From: a virus
Lineage: Duplodnaviria > Caudoviricetes
Direction: 5' to 3' (one strand)
DNA: 64,000 nt
Virus record (IMG/VR): IMGVR_UViG_3300031784_000002
A model generated the notes under the pieces. That model was not told the origin of the DNA, ran no database searches, and saw only the letters and a list, made by a program, of their open reading frames with translations. Below are positions 46,471-54,505 of this stretch, in pieces (within the stretch, counting starts at the first letter, position 1; every line of letters starts with the position of its first letter). Both the position numbers and the translations under genes were made by a program.

Positions 46471-46478
46471 TATAAATA
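46471..46478 (+). promoter_or_regulatory. Late promoter TATAAATA for gp13
   Basis: Exact consensus, 28 nt before the gp13 ATG. Confidence 0.85.
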
Positions 46479-48795: not shown

Positions 48796-49848
48796 ATGAT
48801 ATCAAATTATTTTTATCACGAAATATTGAGAAAGACCATCGTATCTTTCGGTACTCTTTTTAATGATATTCAAATCAAACATAAAGATAATGCAGGCGAT
48901 GATTTTAGTATCTTAACTGTGCCGATTGCTTATGGTCCGGTTCAAAAGTTTTTAGCTAGAATCGAACAAGTTCCCGACCTAAAAAAGAGAGTAGCTATAA
49001 CTCTTCCAAGAATGTCATTTGAAATGACTGGTATTCAATATGATCCTTCTCGAAAGTCTTCGACAATGCAGACTTTTAAAACAGTTGATAAGACTAGTAA
49101 TAATGAATTAACACAGGTTTTTATGCCTGTTCCATATAATGTTAATATTCGTCTTTCAATTATGTCTAAATTGAATGAAGATGCTTTGCAAATTGTAGAA
49201 CAAATACTACCTTACTTTCAACCACATTTTAACTTAACAGTAGATCTCGTATCGAGTATTGGAGAAAAACGAGATATTCCAATGATTCTGGAGAGAATCA
49301 CAATGGATGATCAGTATGAGGGTGATTTTACTACAAGAAGGATTTTAATTTATACTCTAGATTTTACCGCAAAAACATACCTATTTGGTCCAGTTGGAAA
49401 TGGTAATGAGGCGTTAATCAAACAGGTTCAAGTCGATTATTACACAAATACAAATAGAGTTAATCCTTCAAGACAACTTAGATATGTTGCTGAACCAAGA
49501 GCAATTAAAGATTACAATAACGATGAAATTACTATAGTTTCAGAAAATATTTCTGAAAATGTCACTGAGTTTAATGTATCTGATGCAACTGGATTAATTG
49601 TAAATTCATACATTCAAATTGACAATGAATCCATGTTTATTCGTAGTATTAATGGAAATACTTTATTGGTAAATAGAGGTCAAGATAATACTGATATTAC
49701 AACTCACTCATCCGGAACTGCGGTTAATGTGATTAATAATGCAGATGATGAACTAATAGATATGGATGATGACTTTGGATTCAGTGAATATCGTTATGAT
49801 TTTGCTGACGGTAAGATTTATAGTACAACAAAAGGAATTGATGTATGA
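48796..49848 (+). CDS. gp15: Tail sheath stabilizer / head-tail joining protein gp15
   Basis: YFYHEILRKTIVSFGTLFN, VPIAYGPVQKFLARI, LPRMSFE and QILPYFQP motifs. Confidence 0.95.
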   Translation: MISNYFYHEILRKTIVSFGTLFNDIQIKHKDNAGDDFSILTVPIAYGPVQKFLARIEQVPDLKKRVAITLPRMSFEMTGIQYDPSRKSSTMQTFKTVDKTSNNELTQVFMPVPYNVNIRLSIMSKLNEDALQIVEQILPYFQPHFNLTVDLVSSIGEKRDIPMILERITMDDQYEGDFTTRRILIYTLDFTAKTYLFGPVGNGNEALIKQVQVDYYTNTNRVNPSRQLRYVAEPRAIKDYNNDEITIVSENISENVTEFNVSDATGLIVNSYIQIDNESMFIRSINGNTLLVNRGQDNTDITTHSSGTAVNVINNADDELIDMDDDFGFSEYRYDFADGKIYSTTKGIDV

Positions 49849-50261
49849 ATTTTGAAGACATTGATACAGCTTTAGATATTGAACCAACAGAAATTGTAAA
49901 GTCGGAACCAGTTCCAGTATTAAAACCACAGGAGACAGAACAACTTCAAAAAGATTATGAATATTCTAGAGGACAACTCTATTCTATTATTGAAAAGGGA
50001 CAAGAAGCAATTAATGGAATTCTAGAACTTGCACAAGAATCCGACTCCCCAAGAGCTTATGAAGTTGCTGGTCAATTGATCAAAAACGTTGGGGACGTTA
50101 CGGACAAGTTATTAGATCTTCAGAAGAAAATGAAGGATATTAACAAGGAGGAAAAAGGTGTGACTCCAACAAGTGTAACTAATAATGCCGTCTTTTTTGG
50201 TTCTACTGCGGAACTCCAAAAGTTTCTGAAGAGTTCCATGAATCAAGATACATCTAAATAA
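49845..50261 (+). CDS. gp16: Terminase small subunit gp16
   Basis: DYEYSRGQLYSIIEKGQEAI...PRAYEVAGQLIK...GSTAELQK motifs. Confidence 0.93.
   Translation: MNFEDIDTALDIEPTEIVKSEPVPVLKPQETEQLQKDYEYSRGQLYSIIEKGQEAINGILELAQESDSPRAYEVAGQLIKNVGDVTDKLLDLQKKMKDINKEEKGVTPTSVTNNAVFFGSTAELQKFLKSSMNQDTSK
50253..50260 (+). promoter_or_regulatory. Possible late promoter variant TCTAAATA
   Basis: Overlaps the gp16 stop, 26 nt before the next ATG. Confidence 0.5.
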
Positions 50262-50285
50262 TAGATAGACTACCAAAATAGATAA

Positions 50286-50708
50286 ATGAAAACGTTTAAA
50301 GATTTTTGTGCAGAGGCATATTCTATTGATGAAATGGCAATGAATCCAAAGAGTCGTTTTGTTACTCAGGGTCAGATGAGAAATTATGAAAAAGATAGAA
50401 TTGGATCCCAGAGTTTTTCTGATAGAGGTGGATATGCAGGACTCAAAGCAGGTGGTGGCCAAGCAGCATTGAAAAAAGGAAGTAGTGTCAGTGATGTTCT
50501 TTATGCGGGACAAAAAGCAAAGCAAGCAAAGGCACAACAAGATTTTTCAAATAAAATAAACAGACCTACTCAACATCAATCTGGACCAGCAAAGAAACCA
50601 ATGGATGATTTTGCTGCTGGTGGTGGAAATGCTAAGATGAAATCAACTGGTATGACTAAAGATCAAGTGATTGCACTTGGAAAGAAAAACGTATCTAATC
50701 AAAAGTAA
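50286..50708 (+). CDS. Putative internal head protein with a T4 capsid-targeting-like N-terminus
   Basis: It begins MKTFKDFCAEA, compared with the T4 IPIII CTS MKTYQEFIAE. The rest is K/G/Q-rich and low-complexity. Confidence 0.6.
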   Translation: MKTFKDFCAEAYSIDEMAMNPKSRFVTQGQMRNYEKDRIGSQSFSDRGGYAGLKAGGGQAALKKGSSVSDVLYAGQKAKQAKAQQDFSNKINRPTQHQSGPAKKPMDDFAAGGGNAKMKSTGMTKDQVIALGKKNVSNQK

Positions 50709-50709
50709 T

Positions 50710-52356
50710 ATGGAAAAACTCACCTTTAAAGAGTGGTCTATTCTTGCAGACCTAGAAACTATCGCACCTCTTGGAGAGGACTTTGAGTTTTCTATGGCTC
50801 GTGGAGAACTTAAGACTGCTCAGGCAGCTATTACAAGATTGATGACTAAACTTAAGGGTGAGGGAGATTTGGAGGCATGGGTGCAATCCAAAATCACTAA
50901 GGCCGCAGAATATCTTGACACCGTAGCCGACCATCTTTCTCATGGTGAGGATGATACAGAAAGAACGAAAGAAGTCAAGGAAGGTTTCAAAGGCCACAAG
51001 TCTGTAGAAGAAATTGCAAAAAAGCATAAAGTATCTCCATCGGTAATTCAAAAACAACTTGAGATGGGGATGAAAGTAGAACATGAGCATACAACAGATA
51101 ATGATGAGGCAATGGATATTGCCTTACAACATCTAGATGAAATTCCAAACTACTACTCCAAACTCAAGAAGATGGAGAAAGTAAAAGAGGAGTGGACAGA
51201 AATTCATGATGCAAATGGTAATACTTTTGCACATGTTGTTGATATCATTAAGGGATCTGATTATAAGTTCAAGAGTTTTACTGCACCAGTAAACGAGAAG
51301 TGTTGGGATGGTTATAAACAAGTTGGAATGAAGAAAAAAGGAAAAAAAGTAGTTCCTAATTGTGTGAAGGAGGATTTTATTGATGAAGCCAACAAGAGTG
51401 GTGATAGTTCTCTGCGTGACTGGTTTACTAAGAGTCGCGCTTCTGATGGCACCCCTGGTTGGGTTCAACTGGGTGGTAAATACGCAGGACAACCCTGTGC
51501 AAAACAACCAGGACAAACAACCAAACCAAAGTGCGGTTCAAGCAAAATGAAATCAGACCTCTCTGATAAAGAAGAGGAGAGTGCATTCCGTCGTAAGAAT
51601 CAGGAAGATCCAAATCCCGATAGAAAGGGTAAGGCTAAGATGGTTGCGACTGAAGAAAAGGATGCATGTTATTCAAAGGTAAAATCTCGTTATTCGGTTT
51701 GGCCTTCCGCATATGCATCTGGAGCACTAGTTAAGTGCCGTAAAGTCGGTGCAAAAAATTGGGGTAATAAGACTAAAAAGGAGTCTTTTGAACTTCAAGA
51801 AATGGGTGAAATTCAAAGATATTGTCCTAAGTGTAAAAAGAATGAGACGATGAAGGACTGTAGATATGGTGAGGGATATTGGAAAATGTTCTCACTTCCT
51901 GCATCATTAGCCCCAGATCCTTATGATCCCAATGATATTCATCCCGCTAATGAGGGAATGAGTTTTGAAATTGGTTCTGGTCATAAACAGGCGCAGAAAC
52001 AAGCAAAGATCAGAAATCTTGCAACAGGAACTAATAATCCCAATGAAAAGTCTGCTGCCCTCAGGAAACTAACTGGACCTTCACTTCCTCTTGCAGATTC
52101 AGTAATCCAACCAGGACAACTGACAAATGAGGACTATCAACGGATACAATCCACTGGAAATGTTTATACTATACTCTTCTCATGGAGAGGTAGACCGATG
52201 ATGAATCTCCAATTCTTTTTCCCAAACATGAAGAGACCATCAAAAGATGAAGTTAAAAAGGAAATTGAGAAGTTCTATCCTGGTGCAGTTATAATGCAAT
52301 GGTATCCAAGTCCTACTGATCCATCTAAACCAATTGTAGTGATTCCAGGTAATTGA
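50710..52356 (+). CDS. Mosaic multi-module protein, putative internal head polyprotein (548 aa from the ATG at 50710)
   Basis: The ATG lies 2 nt after the upstream stop. It begins MEKLTFKEW. It has discrete modules (HLDEIPNYYSKL; CWDGYKQVGMKKKGKKVVPNCV; KDACYSKVKSRYSVWPSAYASG) separated by x-x-E linkers. Confidence 0.7.
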   Translation: MEKLTFKEWSILADLETIAPLGEDFEFSMARGELKTAQAAITRLMTKLKGEGDLEAWVQSKITKAAEYLDTVADHLSHGEDDTERTKEVKEGFKGHKSVEEIAKKHKVSPSVIQKQLEMGMKVEHEHTTDNDEAMDIALQHLDEIPNYYSKLKKMEKVKEEWTEIHDANGNTFAHVVDIIKGSDYKFKSFTAPVNEKCWDGYKQVGMKKKGKKVVPNCVKEDFIDEANKSGDSSLRDWFTKSRASDGTPGWVQLGGKYAGQPCAKQPGQTTKPKCGSSKMKSDLSDKEEESAFRRKNQEDPNPDRKGKAKMVATEEKDACYSKVKSRYSVWPSAYASGALVKCRKVGAKNWGNKTKKESFELQEMGEIQRYCPKCKKNETMKDCRYGEGYWKMFSLPASLAPDPYDPNDIHPANEGMSFEIGSGHKQAQKQAKIRNLATGTNNPNEKSAALRKLTGPSLPLADSVIQPGQLTNEDYQRIQSTGNVYTILFSWRGRPMMNLQFFFPNMKRPSKDEVKKEIEKFYPGAVIMQWYPSPTDPSKPIVVIPGN

Positions 52357-52357
52357 A

Positions 52358-52534
52358 ATGAATATTGACCCCTCTGAAATTGAACTTTCGGATATTAATA
52401 AGATGTTGATTTATGAACAACAGGCAAGGGTTATAGATAAATTAGATAGAGAAGAAGCAATAGAGTTTGCAAAGGCTTATTTTAAACTTTATCTCAAACA
52501 ACAGGAAGTAGTAGCAAGTTTAGTTAAATTATAA
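52358..52534 (+). CDS. nblA: NblA-like phycobilisome degradation adaptor, 58 aa (not in the ORF track)
   Basis: Manual translation gives MNIDPSEIELSDINKMLIYEQQARVIDKLDREEAIEFAKAYFKLYLKQQEVVASLVKL. It fills the gap between 52356 and 52544 exactly. Size and helix-turn-helix pattern resemble NblA. Confidence 0.6.
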   Translation: MNIDPSEIELSDINKMLIYEQQARVIDKLDREEAIEFAKAYFKLYLKQQEVVASLVKL

Positions 52535-52543
52535 TTTTATACT

Positions 52544-54193
52544 ATGAATGATCAAGTATATCTTGGCAATCCCAATCTTAAGAAGGCTAATGTAGCCGTA
52601 GAATTTACGCAGGATCAAGTTCTTGAATTCGTCAAGTGCAAGAATGATCCTGTATATTTTGCTAAAAATTATATCAAGATTGTTTCTCTGGACCATGGTG
52701 AGATACCTTTCAAGATGTATCCGTTCCAGGAAAAATTAATTAATAATTTCCACGAGAACCGATTCAACATTTGTAGGATGCCTCGTCAGACAGGTAAATC
52801 TACAACTTGTGTTTCATATTTGTTACATTATGCGGTGTTTAACGATAATGTCAATATAGCTATTCTAGCGAACAAAGCATCCACTGCACAGGATCTACTG
52901 AGTAGATTACAATTTGCATACGAGAAACTGCCAAAGTGGATGCAACAAGGTATTGTATCATGGAATAAACGATCACTAGAACTAGAAAATGGTTCCAAAA
53001 TTATCGCAGCGTCTACTTCTGCATCTGCTGTCCGAGGCGGATCATATAATGTCATCTTTTTGGACGAATTCGCATTCATCCCAAATCACATTGCTGATGA
53101 ATTCTTTGCCTCTGTTTATCCTACTATTTCGTCAGGTAAAAGCACAAAAGTCCTGATTGTTTCTACCCCAAAGGGTATGAACCACTTCTACCGTATCTGG
53201 CATGATGCGGAGAGGGGTAAGAACGAATACATACCTACAGACGTACATTGGTCTGAAGTCCCTGGCAGGGACGATAAGTGGAAAGCCCAGACAATTGCAA
53301 ATACTTCCGAACAACAATTCAAAGTTGAGTTTGAATGCGAATTCCTAGGATCTGTCGATACTCTTGTATCTGCAGCAAAACTCAGATCCTTGGTTTATGA
53401 AGATCCAATCAAGTCAAATGCGGGTTTGGATATCTACGAAGAACCTCAGAAAGACCACAACTATGTTGTTACAGTAGACGTTGCTCGTGGAGTAGAAAAA
53501 GATTATTCTGCATTTACGATTTGTGATACTACATCATTCCCATATAGATTAGTAGCAAAATATAGAGACAACCAAATAAAACCAATGTTGTTTCCAAGTA
53601 TTATCAAAGATCTTGCAGTTGCATATAACAAAGCATATATTCTTGTAGAGGTTAATGATATTGGAGAACAAGTAGGACAAATTCTACATATGGATTTGGA
53701 ATATGATAATGTTCTCATGTGTACAATGAGAGGTCGTGCTGGACAACTGGTTGGTCAGGGATTTTCTGGAAAGAAATCTCAAATGGGCGTCAAGATGTCC
53801 AAGAATGTCAAAAAGATTGGATGTATGAATCTTAAGACATTAATTGAAGGAGATAAATTGGATATTAAAGATTATGATACTATTAGTGAACTAACCACTT
53901 TCATTCAAAAATCAAATTCATTTGAAGCTGAAGATGGTTGTAATGATGACCTCGCAATGTGTCTAGTAATTTTTGCTTGGTTAATTGCACAACCTTATTT
54001 CAAAGAGATGACGGACAATGATGTTCGTAAAAGATTATATGAGGAACAAAAGAATCAAATAGAACAAGATATGGCTCCTTTTGGATTTATTTCTGATGGT
54101 TTAGATAGTGGAGAGAGTTTTGTTGATGAAGATGGAGATCGTTGGCACGTTGATGAATATGGAGATATGCAATATATGTGGGATTACCGATAA
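52544..54193 (+). CDS. gp17: Terminase large subunit gp17
   Basis: YLGNPNLK, Walker A RQTGKST, Walker B VIFLDEFAF, and nuclease motifs VTVDVARG and DDLAM. Confidence 0.98.
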   Translation: MNDQVYLGNPNLKKANVAVEFTQDQVLEFVKCKNDPVYFAKNYIKIVSLDHGEIPFKMYPFQEKLINNFHENRFNICRMPRQTGKSTTCVSYLLHYAVFNDNVNIAILANKASTAQDLLSRLQFAYEKLPKWMQQGIVSWNKRSLELENGSKIIAASTSASAVRGGSYNVIFLDEFAFIPNHIADEFFASVYPTISSGKSTKVLIVSTPKGMNHFYRIWHDAERGKNEYIPTDVHWSEVPGRDDKWKAQTIANTSEQQFKVEFECEFLGSVDTLVSAAKLRSLVYEDPIKSNAGLDIYEEPQKDHNYVVTVDVARGVEKDYSAFTICDTTSFPYRLVAKYRDNQIKPMLFPSIIKDLAVAYNKAYILVEVNDIGEQVGQILHMDLEYDNVLMCTMRGRAGQLVGQGFSGKKSQMGVKMSKNVKKIGCMNLKTLIEGDKLDIKDYDTISELTTFIQKSNSFEAEDGCNDDLAMCLVIFAWLIAQPYFKEMTDNDVRKRLYEEQKNQIEQDMAPFGFISDGLDSGESFVDEDGDRWHVDEYGDMQYMWDYR

Positions 54194-54423
54194 TGAATTT
54201 AGATAATCAGTTTGAATTAGAACATTTATTTTTAACTGAACGAAAGTGTAGAGTTTGTAAGGAAATAAAAGATTTAATTGATGGATTTTATCTAACTCGT
54301 AGTGGTAGAGGTCACATTCCCTCTGCGTATTCATATGAATGTAAAGAGTGTACTAAGAAACGAATTATCAGTAATAGAAAACAAAAACCCACAGATTCAT
54401 ACTGGCAATATCCTGATTGGTAG
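54193..54423 (+). CDS. Small Zn-finger protein (CxxC...CxxC), endonuclease-VII N-terminal-like
   Basis: CRVC...SYECKEC. The likely start is the ATG at 54193, overlapping the gp17 stop (TAATG). Confidence 0.7.
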   Translation: MNLDNQFELEHLFLTERKCRVCKEIKDLIDGFYLTRSGRGHIPSAYSYECKECTKKRIISNRKQKPTDSYWQYPDW

Positions 54424-54461
54424 TGTTCACTGTCCGTTTCCCCAATATAAAGTTAGCAAAT

Positions 54462-54469
54462 AATAAATA
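54462..54469 (+). promoter_or_regulatory. Late promoter AATAAATA for gp18
   Basis: NATAAATA upstream of the GAGGG SD and the ATG at 54506. Confidence 0.75.
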
Positions 54470-54505
54470 TTTGTAGTCAAGTTGAACTTCTTCAGAGGGA
54501 AAGAC

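Follow-up and report, generated by a model that had tools for sequence, protein, structure and literature searches.

A probable divergent NblA-family gene between the terminase genes of an uncultured freshwater T4-like cyanomyovirus

Introduction

What could a 58-codon open reading frame (ORF) wedged in front of the large terminase gene do for a virus? The ORF in question lies at 52358-52534 on the + strand of a 64,000-nucleotide (nt) stretch of IMG/VR virus record IMGVR_UViG_3300031784_000002 (Duplodnaviria; Caudoviricetes), referred to here as the window. A first-pass annotation, made from the letters alone, had read it as a hidden relative of nblA. The NblA protein, as reviewed elsewhere, is an adaptor that marks the cyanobacterial antenna for proteolysis via ClpC-ClpP. 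Here we report that the encoded protein (P0001), from a T4-like cyanomyovirus of fresh water that has not been cultured, is probably a divergent member of the NblA family. It would belong to a clade that also takes in the S-TIM5, S-SCSM1 and S-SCSM2R proteins and the multi-copy genes of picocyanobacteria, and homology and gene layout suggest a role in antenna breakdown and a late timing.

Results

A short but genuine gene

The ORF starts with ATG 52358 and ends with TAA 52532-52534. Its start codon is separated by a single nucleotide (A52357) from the stop codon of the upstream gene (TGA 52354-52356), and the ATG of gp17 (52544) follows 9 nt past its own stop codon. The ORF length and both spacings had been given correctly in the first-pass annotation, and the peptide quoted there is exact. 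Within the junction with the upstream gene (52347-52357, + strand), the only Shine-Dalgarno-like element is a weak AGG at 52347-52349, and the layout at the start codon suggests translational coupling with that gene, which encodes 561 amino acids (aa). The ORF was hidden only from the ORF track used in the first pass, since gene callers predict it and its homologue in phage S-SCSM2R is annotated as NblA.

The protein proved to be widely distributed. Identical copies were recorded on 29 contigs, of which the longest measures 236 kb, and there are 75 relatives at 46-95% identity; an exhaustive profile search yielded 153 clusters at the 50% identity level, and more than 519 loci in IMG/VR carry relatives. 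Among the closest loci, the median pairwise ratio of nonsynonymous to synonymous substitution rates (dN/dS) was 0.15 at a mean dS of 0.95, variable sites fell on codon positions 1, 2 and 3 in the proportion 29/16/42, and ORF lengths were constant at 54-61 aa. The 58-codon ORF is a genuine gene under purifying selection. Four relatives (P0082, P0088, P0113 and P0145) are longer, at 134-140 aa, with the NblA-like domain located C-terminally, N-terminally or twice; these may be fused or tandem forms, or products of mis-called starts.

Direct sequence searches gave matches as well. P0001 matched phrog_27081, to which this cyanomyovirus clade corresponds (E 3.4e-12), and tblastn retrieved S-SCSM2R (57%, E 3e-10, over 88% of the protein), S-TIM5 (40%, E 2e-4) and S-SCSM1 (41%, E 3e-3). 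All 20 of the 20 records matched in the phage collection were Synechococcus phages or cyanophages. In a language-model atlas, the NblA cluster was the first named neighbour (score 0.79), which was taken as a lead only.

The predicted fold and dimer resemble those of NblA

When AlphaFold2 was run with the family alignment, it returned a confident helix-loop-helix model (helix 13-27, loop, helix 31-57) with a predicted local distance difference test (pLDDT) score of 91.9. The model was aligned to 48,161 PDB representatives without the use of Foldseek, and all three NblA representatives appeared within the top 5 chains. Rank 1 was 1ojh_A, the NblA of Anabaena/Nostoc PCC 7120 (alignment statistics 6.6, 1.2 and 50 of 52), followed by 2q8v_A at rank 2 (6.2, 3.0 and 51) and 3cs5_A at rank 5 (5.0, 1.0 and 46). 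The structural alignment to 1ojh is gapless, placing residues 9-58 of the model onto residues 5-54 of the chain. This register agrees with one half of the by-eye alignment offered in the first pass, in which LDREEA...SLVK was set against MSHDQA...ELLK; the other half, the IELS match, needs a one-residue shift, and hhalign agrees on this point.

NblA functions as a dimer, a bundle of four helices. A dimer prediction, which the first-pass annotation had called for, gave a homodimer that passed its controls (score 0.54 versus 0.00 for the best control, with at least 92% contact agreement and a partner pLDDT of at least 75). Of proteins solved as one-chain pairs, 20 of 30 attained the mark applied here, against 1 of 23 of those solved as single chains. 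The predicted contacts are symmetric and lie in helix 2 (34:34, 38:38 and 41:41), pointing to homodimerization through that helix; because NblA dimers are among the solved structures, the model may have passed through its likeness to them.

The gapless register also places L55 on L51 and K57 on K53 of the PCC 7120 protein (codons for L55-V56-K57 at 52520-52528, + strand). A recent article reports phycobiliprotein binding through L51 and K53 (Nature 2025, PMC12695635). In 82 of 90 family members a hydrophobic residue stands at the L55 position, while the lysine at K57 is kept in 29 of the 90; the active NblA of phage S-TIP37 also lacks a lysine at the second binding position.

A profile chain through picocyanobacteria reaches canonical NblA

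For profile comparisons, a phage-family profile (A2) was built from 83 diverse members and a canonical set from 26 distinct NblAs, which came from 30 loci over the Pfam cut-off in 151 sampled genomes of the phylum. Picocyanobacteria were represented by five marine Synechococcus genomes and five freshwater genomes of Cyanobium, Vulcanococcus or related genera (G001-G005 and G156-G160; loci L088-L107 and L218-L224), for which phage psbA served as bait. A2 matched 3-7 small open frames per genome in the marine set (E down to 1e-8) and 1-3 per genome in the freshwater set, so that each of the 10 picocyanobacterial genomes searched has NblA-related ORFs, in 1-7 copies. Some of these ORFs form adjacent pairs, as at 182196-182297 and 182403-182522 of contig C17 in G005.

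In hhalign, the phage family matched the picocyanobacterial ORFs at 98.4% (E 5.8e-15, 52 columns), and these ORFs matched canonical NblA at 86.9% (E 4.2e-6, 34 columns). The phage family compared directly with canonical NblA reached 32% (P 4.8e-4, 35 columns), and the merged phage and picocyanobacterial profile 66.7% (E 5.4e-5, 37 columns). Every score surpassed those of all 100 column shuffles, and with reversed profiles the scores stayed at background. A narrow profile of the Ma-LMM01 type (Neff, the effective number of sequences, 1.3) had given only 15% and was replaced by the more diverse canonical set. At the level of sequence profiles, homology to bona fide NblA is thus transitive, running via the picocyanobacterial ORFs, with a weak direct comparison. 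Published work points the same way: ORF237 of S-SCSM1 was called nblA by HHpred, and seven myovirus homologues were found to cluster with S-TIM5 and picocyanobacterial genes (PMC9602691), a clustering reproduced here by profile comparison. The first-pass proposal of an NblA-like gene is therefore upheld by the fold, the transitive profile homology, the predicted dimer and the published assignments of homologues. With this gene, a cyanomyovirus NblA clade known from the literature gains a new member from fresh water.

The Pfam model does not see this clade

The first-pass annotation had named a search with the Pfam NblA hidden Markov model (HMM) as a check, and this check fails for P0001 and for the whole myovirus clade. 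With PF04485 (IPR007574), P0001 gave no match at E<=1, short of the curated cut-off of 25 bits; 3 of 26 close relatives touched the model (best E 0.033), as did 1 of 83 diverse relatives (E 2.4e-5), and nothing was found in the genomes of S-SCSM2R, S-SCSM1 and S-TIM5, while the Ma-LMM01 control scored 52 bits. We attribute this failure to a limit of the model because PF04485 clears its cut-off in none of the five marine Synechococcus genomes either, where three of its four sub-cut-off matches fall on ORFs matched by A2. Marine phage NblAs have likewise been reported to score poorly against the Pfam model (Nadel et al. 2019). The PF04485 miss is a blind spot of the model and no refutation of NblA identity.

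Two other direct searches returned no NblA. Searches of PDB sequences with phmmer and hmmsearch, using the protein and the family profiles, gave weak unrelated matches to FabH and AcrIIA15, and Foldseek had no match at E<=0.001 in either PDB or BFVD; an unnamed protein ranked first in BFVD.

The gene lies between the terminase genes and stays near virion genes in most relatives examined

The first-pass annotation had placed the gene between a cluster of internal-protein genes and the terminase. It does stand directly before gp17; more exactly, it lies between both terminase genes, after two virion-protein genes, to which the first pass had itself given the internal-protein label. The small subunit gene (gp16-like, 49845-50261, + strand; PF11053 E 4.6e-11, phrog_445 E 1e-55) is followed by two inserted genes of 140 aa and 561 aa (50286-52356), then by the nblA-like ORF and the large subunit gene (gp17-like, 52544-54193, + strand; PF03237, PF17289, phrog_2). 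The 561-aa gene (50671-52356, + strand; phrog_727, DUF5661) is counted from its listed TTG, and ATG 50710 is the likelier start; its homologues carry the annotation "virion structural protein."

Among 80 IMG/VR loci, about 24, mainly those of the closest relatives (at least 62% identity), have nblA 3-23 nt before gp17, and in these a homologue of the 561-aa gene precedes it. Gaps of 3-23 nt to gp17 were recorded in 20 related loci. In the loci where nblA does not precede gp17, no terminase was found within 3.5 kb of the nblA-like gene. One such locus, on a 211-kb contig, has the gene after large virion proteins, with tail-fibre-assembly, neck-protein and sheath-stabiliser genes coming after it. 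The family is mobile within T4-like cyanophage genomes, yet it is kept in the morphogenesis module in the cases examined, S-TIM5 excepted.

A second conserved structural-module position was noticed in the more distant clade of IMG/VR loci (L160-L217), where the nblA-like gene precedes tail-fibre-assembly, gp13/gp14-like and gp15-like genes. At L200 (3314-3677) and other loci of this range, the last part of a 66-aa virion structural protein gene (phrog_473) overlaps with it. Downstream in the window, an 81-aa ORF with two CxxC pairs (54178-54423) overlaps the final codons of gp17; at its place, relatives annotate "endonuclease VII" (S-T4) or "PacI protein" (S-SCSM2R).

Motif positions suggest a late transcript

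The T4-type late-promoter motif NATAAATA is present in 15 copies on the + strand of the window and in one on the - strand, and 12 of the 15 precede a gene start by at most 60 nt (binomial P 3e-16). The nearest copy upstream of the ORF, TATAAATA at 46471-46478 (+ strand), is, judged by the motif only, the predicted start of the late unit containing nblA. The next, AATAAATA at 54462-54469 (+ strand), stands 13 nt before the sheath gene start (54482), and the scan found none in the 8 kb between 46471 and 54462. A single late mRNA running from the neck genes over gp16, both virion-protein genes and nblA to gp17 is therefore predicted from this motif-free stretch together with the 1-nt and 9-nt spacers. 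Scans for sigma-70-like promoters and for terminators did not rise above shuffled sequence, and no + strand site lay immediately before the ORF.

The single metatranscriptome run, X20 (share 0.06), contributed three short contigs within the 561-aa gene, for which DNA carry-over is possible, and none over 52358-52534; the raw-read run X21 held no reads on the stretch. Late expression within a packaging operon, as put forward in the first-pass annotation, is plausible given the motif positions and the tight gene spacing.

Habitat, rather than nblA, points to a phycobilisome-bearing host

To a large extent (80-96% of words), a 4.5-kb stretch around the gene (window positions 50000-54500) is held in 19 sequencing runs from 14 studies, and the contigs of one run cover it almost without differences. 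Eight of the 14 studies carry a freshwater or lake-water label and six the label "fungus metagenome"; one of these may have supplied the sample behind the window. Seven runs of the six "fungus metagenome" studies hold 86-96% of the words, and such samples were probably taken from lakes or ponds despite their label.

The first-pass annotation had also taken the gene to suggest a host with phycobilisomes. By itself, nblA does not imply such a host, because nblA phages, including S-SCSM1 (PMC9602691) and S-SCSM2R (PMC12801897), also infect Prochlorococcus. The freshwater habitat nonetheless makes a phycobilisome-bearing host likely and fits picocyanobacteria of that kind.

Discussion

How would such a protein work in an infected cell? 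By homology, the NblA dimer would bind host phycobiliproteins, with L55 and K57 at the L51 and K53 positions, and would pass them to the host ClpC-ClpP protease. The antenna would thereby be dismantled and amino acids freed for phage protein synthesis, as in S-TIP37. The layout adds that nblA would have no promoter of its own, would be translated from a long late mRNA together with the neck, gp15, gp16 and gp17 genes, and would act during virion assembly.

A less probable reading accepts the NblA homology and changes the task: the protein would not perform homodimeric phycobilisome degradation but would pair with a host NblA paralogue, as a modulator or decoy, or would steer Clp proteolysis elsewhere. 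Partners would be plentiful, with 3-7 related genes per picocyanobacterial genome, and Nadel et al. suggest that a viral NblA that fails to complement may need a host partner. In S-TIP37, moreover, NblA-dependent degradation extends beyond phycobilisome proteins, and nblA occurs in phages of Prochlorococcus, which lacks phycobilisomes and is infected by S-SCSM1 and S-SCSM2R too. On the other side stand the homodimer prediction with its controls, the hydrophobic residue at the phycobiliprotein-binding leucine position in most family members, and the habitat: Prochlorococcus is marine, and fresh water points to hosts with phycobilisomes.

We regard it as very unlikely that the gene encodes a small accessory of virion assembly or packaging, or a packaged internal protein, whose two helices resemble NblA by chance. 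The cyanobacterial genomes searched carry several homologous copies, which would be unexpected for a virion part; all three NblA structures rank in the top 5 of the PDB comparison, the profile chain to canonical NblA scores above its shuffled controls, and matches in the phage collection come from cyanophages only. The S-SCSM2R homologue, ORF118, is moreover not in the virion proteome list of that phage, though small proteins are easily missed. Finally, the idea that the spacer between gp16 and gp17 holds an open frame by chance has next to nothing to commend it, for although the ORF is short, has no strong ribosome-binding site and fell under the ORF cut-off of the first pass, the low dN/dS at a dS near 1 and the third-position excess of variable sites rule it out, as do hundreds of relatives of constant length and a confident fold prediction.

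Read as an NblA-family gene, the locus extends recent work in two directions. Viral NblA was recently shown to speed infection and to cut light harvesting in oceanic Synechococcus, in T7-like marine phages (Nature 2025, PMC12695635). The divergent picocyanobacterial type is also widespread in freshwater T4-like cyanophages, as seen from its IMG/VR loci and from lake metagenomes of many studies, and in T4-like cyanophages nblA is predicted to be placed within late structural operons. There is, in addition, an annotation gap: surveys that use PF04485 undercount nblA because the model misses both the phage clade and the copies of their picocyanobacterial hosts.

The closest known counterpart is ORF118 of S-SCSM2R (XQU50031; BMC Biol 2025, PMC12801897), an NblA by annotation only. 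Both phages are large (about 240 kb) T4-like cyanomyoviruses, and the slot has the same order, namely, small terminase, large hypothetical or virion protein, nblA and large terminase. S-SCSM2R differs in being marine and in having one extra small ORF between its nblA and gp17. The S-TIM5 homologue is letter for letter H6WG80 of the NblA set of Nadel et al. 2019 and has the same length as the protein here, and ORF237 of S-SCSM1, annotated as "phycobilisome degradation protein" (PMC9602691), shares family and length as well. In these two phages the slot differs: nblA lies among small genes and transfer RNAs in S-TIM5, and in S-SCSM1 it is flanked by the genes of a virion protein and a helicase.

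Among viral NblAs of picocyanobacterial phages, that of the T7-like S-TIP37 is the only case with knock-out evidence and serves as the working model for function here. Without its nblA, the phage has a latent period of 8-10 h instead of 3 h and makes less of the morphogenesis proteins, and the NblA protein degrades the phycobilisome together with other proteins and lowers the yield of photosystem II (Nature 2025, PMC12695635). S-TIP37 belongs to another phage family and its protein to another NblA clade, with T66 where P0001 has K57. Its nblA is expressed with the DNA replication genes, before morphogenesis, whereas the gene described here lies in a predicted late operon.

Canonical NblA (PF04485; 1OJH, 2Q8V and 3CS5) and the NblA of Ma-LMM01 share with P0001 their size, the helix-loop-helix fold, the dimer (predicted here) and the Leu/Lys binding positions. 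Identity to canonical NblA is about 10%, with no Pfam match for P0001, and the canonical motifs LSLEQQF and EQA...LYEQM are replaced by FEYEK.SR.ID and KLYLKQQE. In Ma-LMM01, a Microcystis phage whose NblA is host derived, nblA lies between nrdA and nrdB and not among virion genes. A more speculative reading would have T4-like cyanophages retain this type of nblA within operons for late morphogenesis and packaging, directly before gp17 in one clade and beside neck and tail-fibre-assembly genes in another. Demolition of the antenna might then be timed to virion protein synthesis, possibly in concert with host NblA paralogues, an arrangement that would differ from those of both S-TIP37 and Ma-LMM01.
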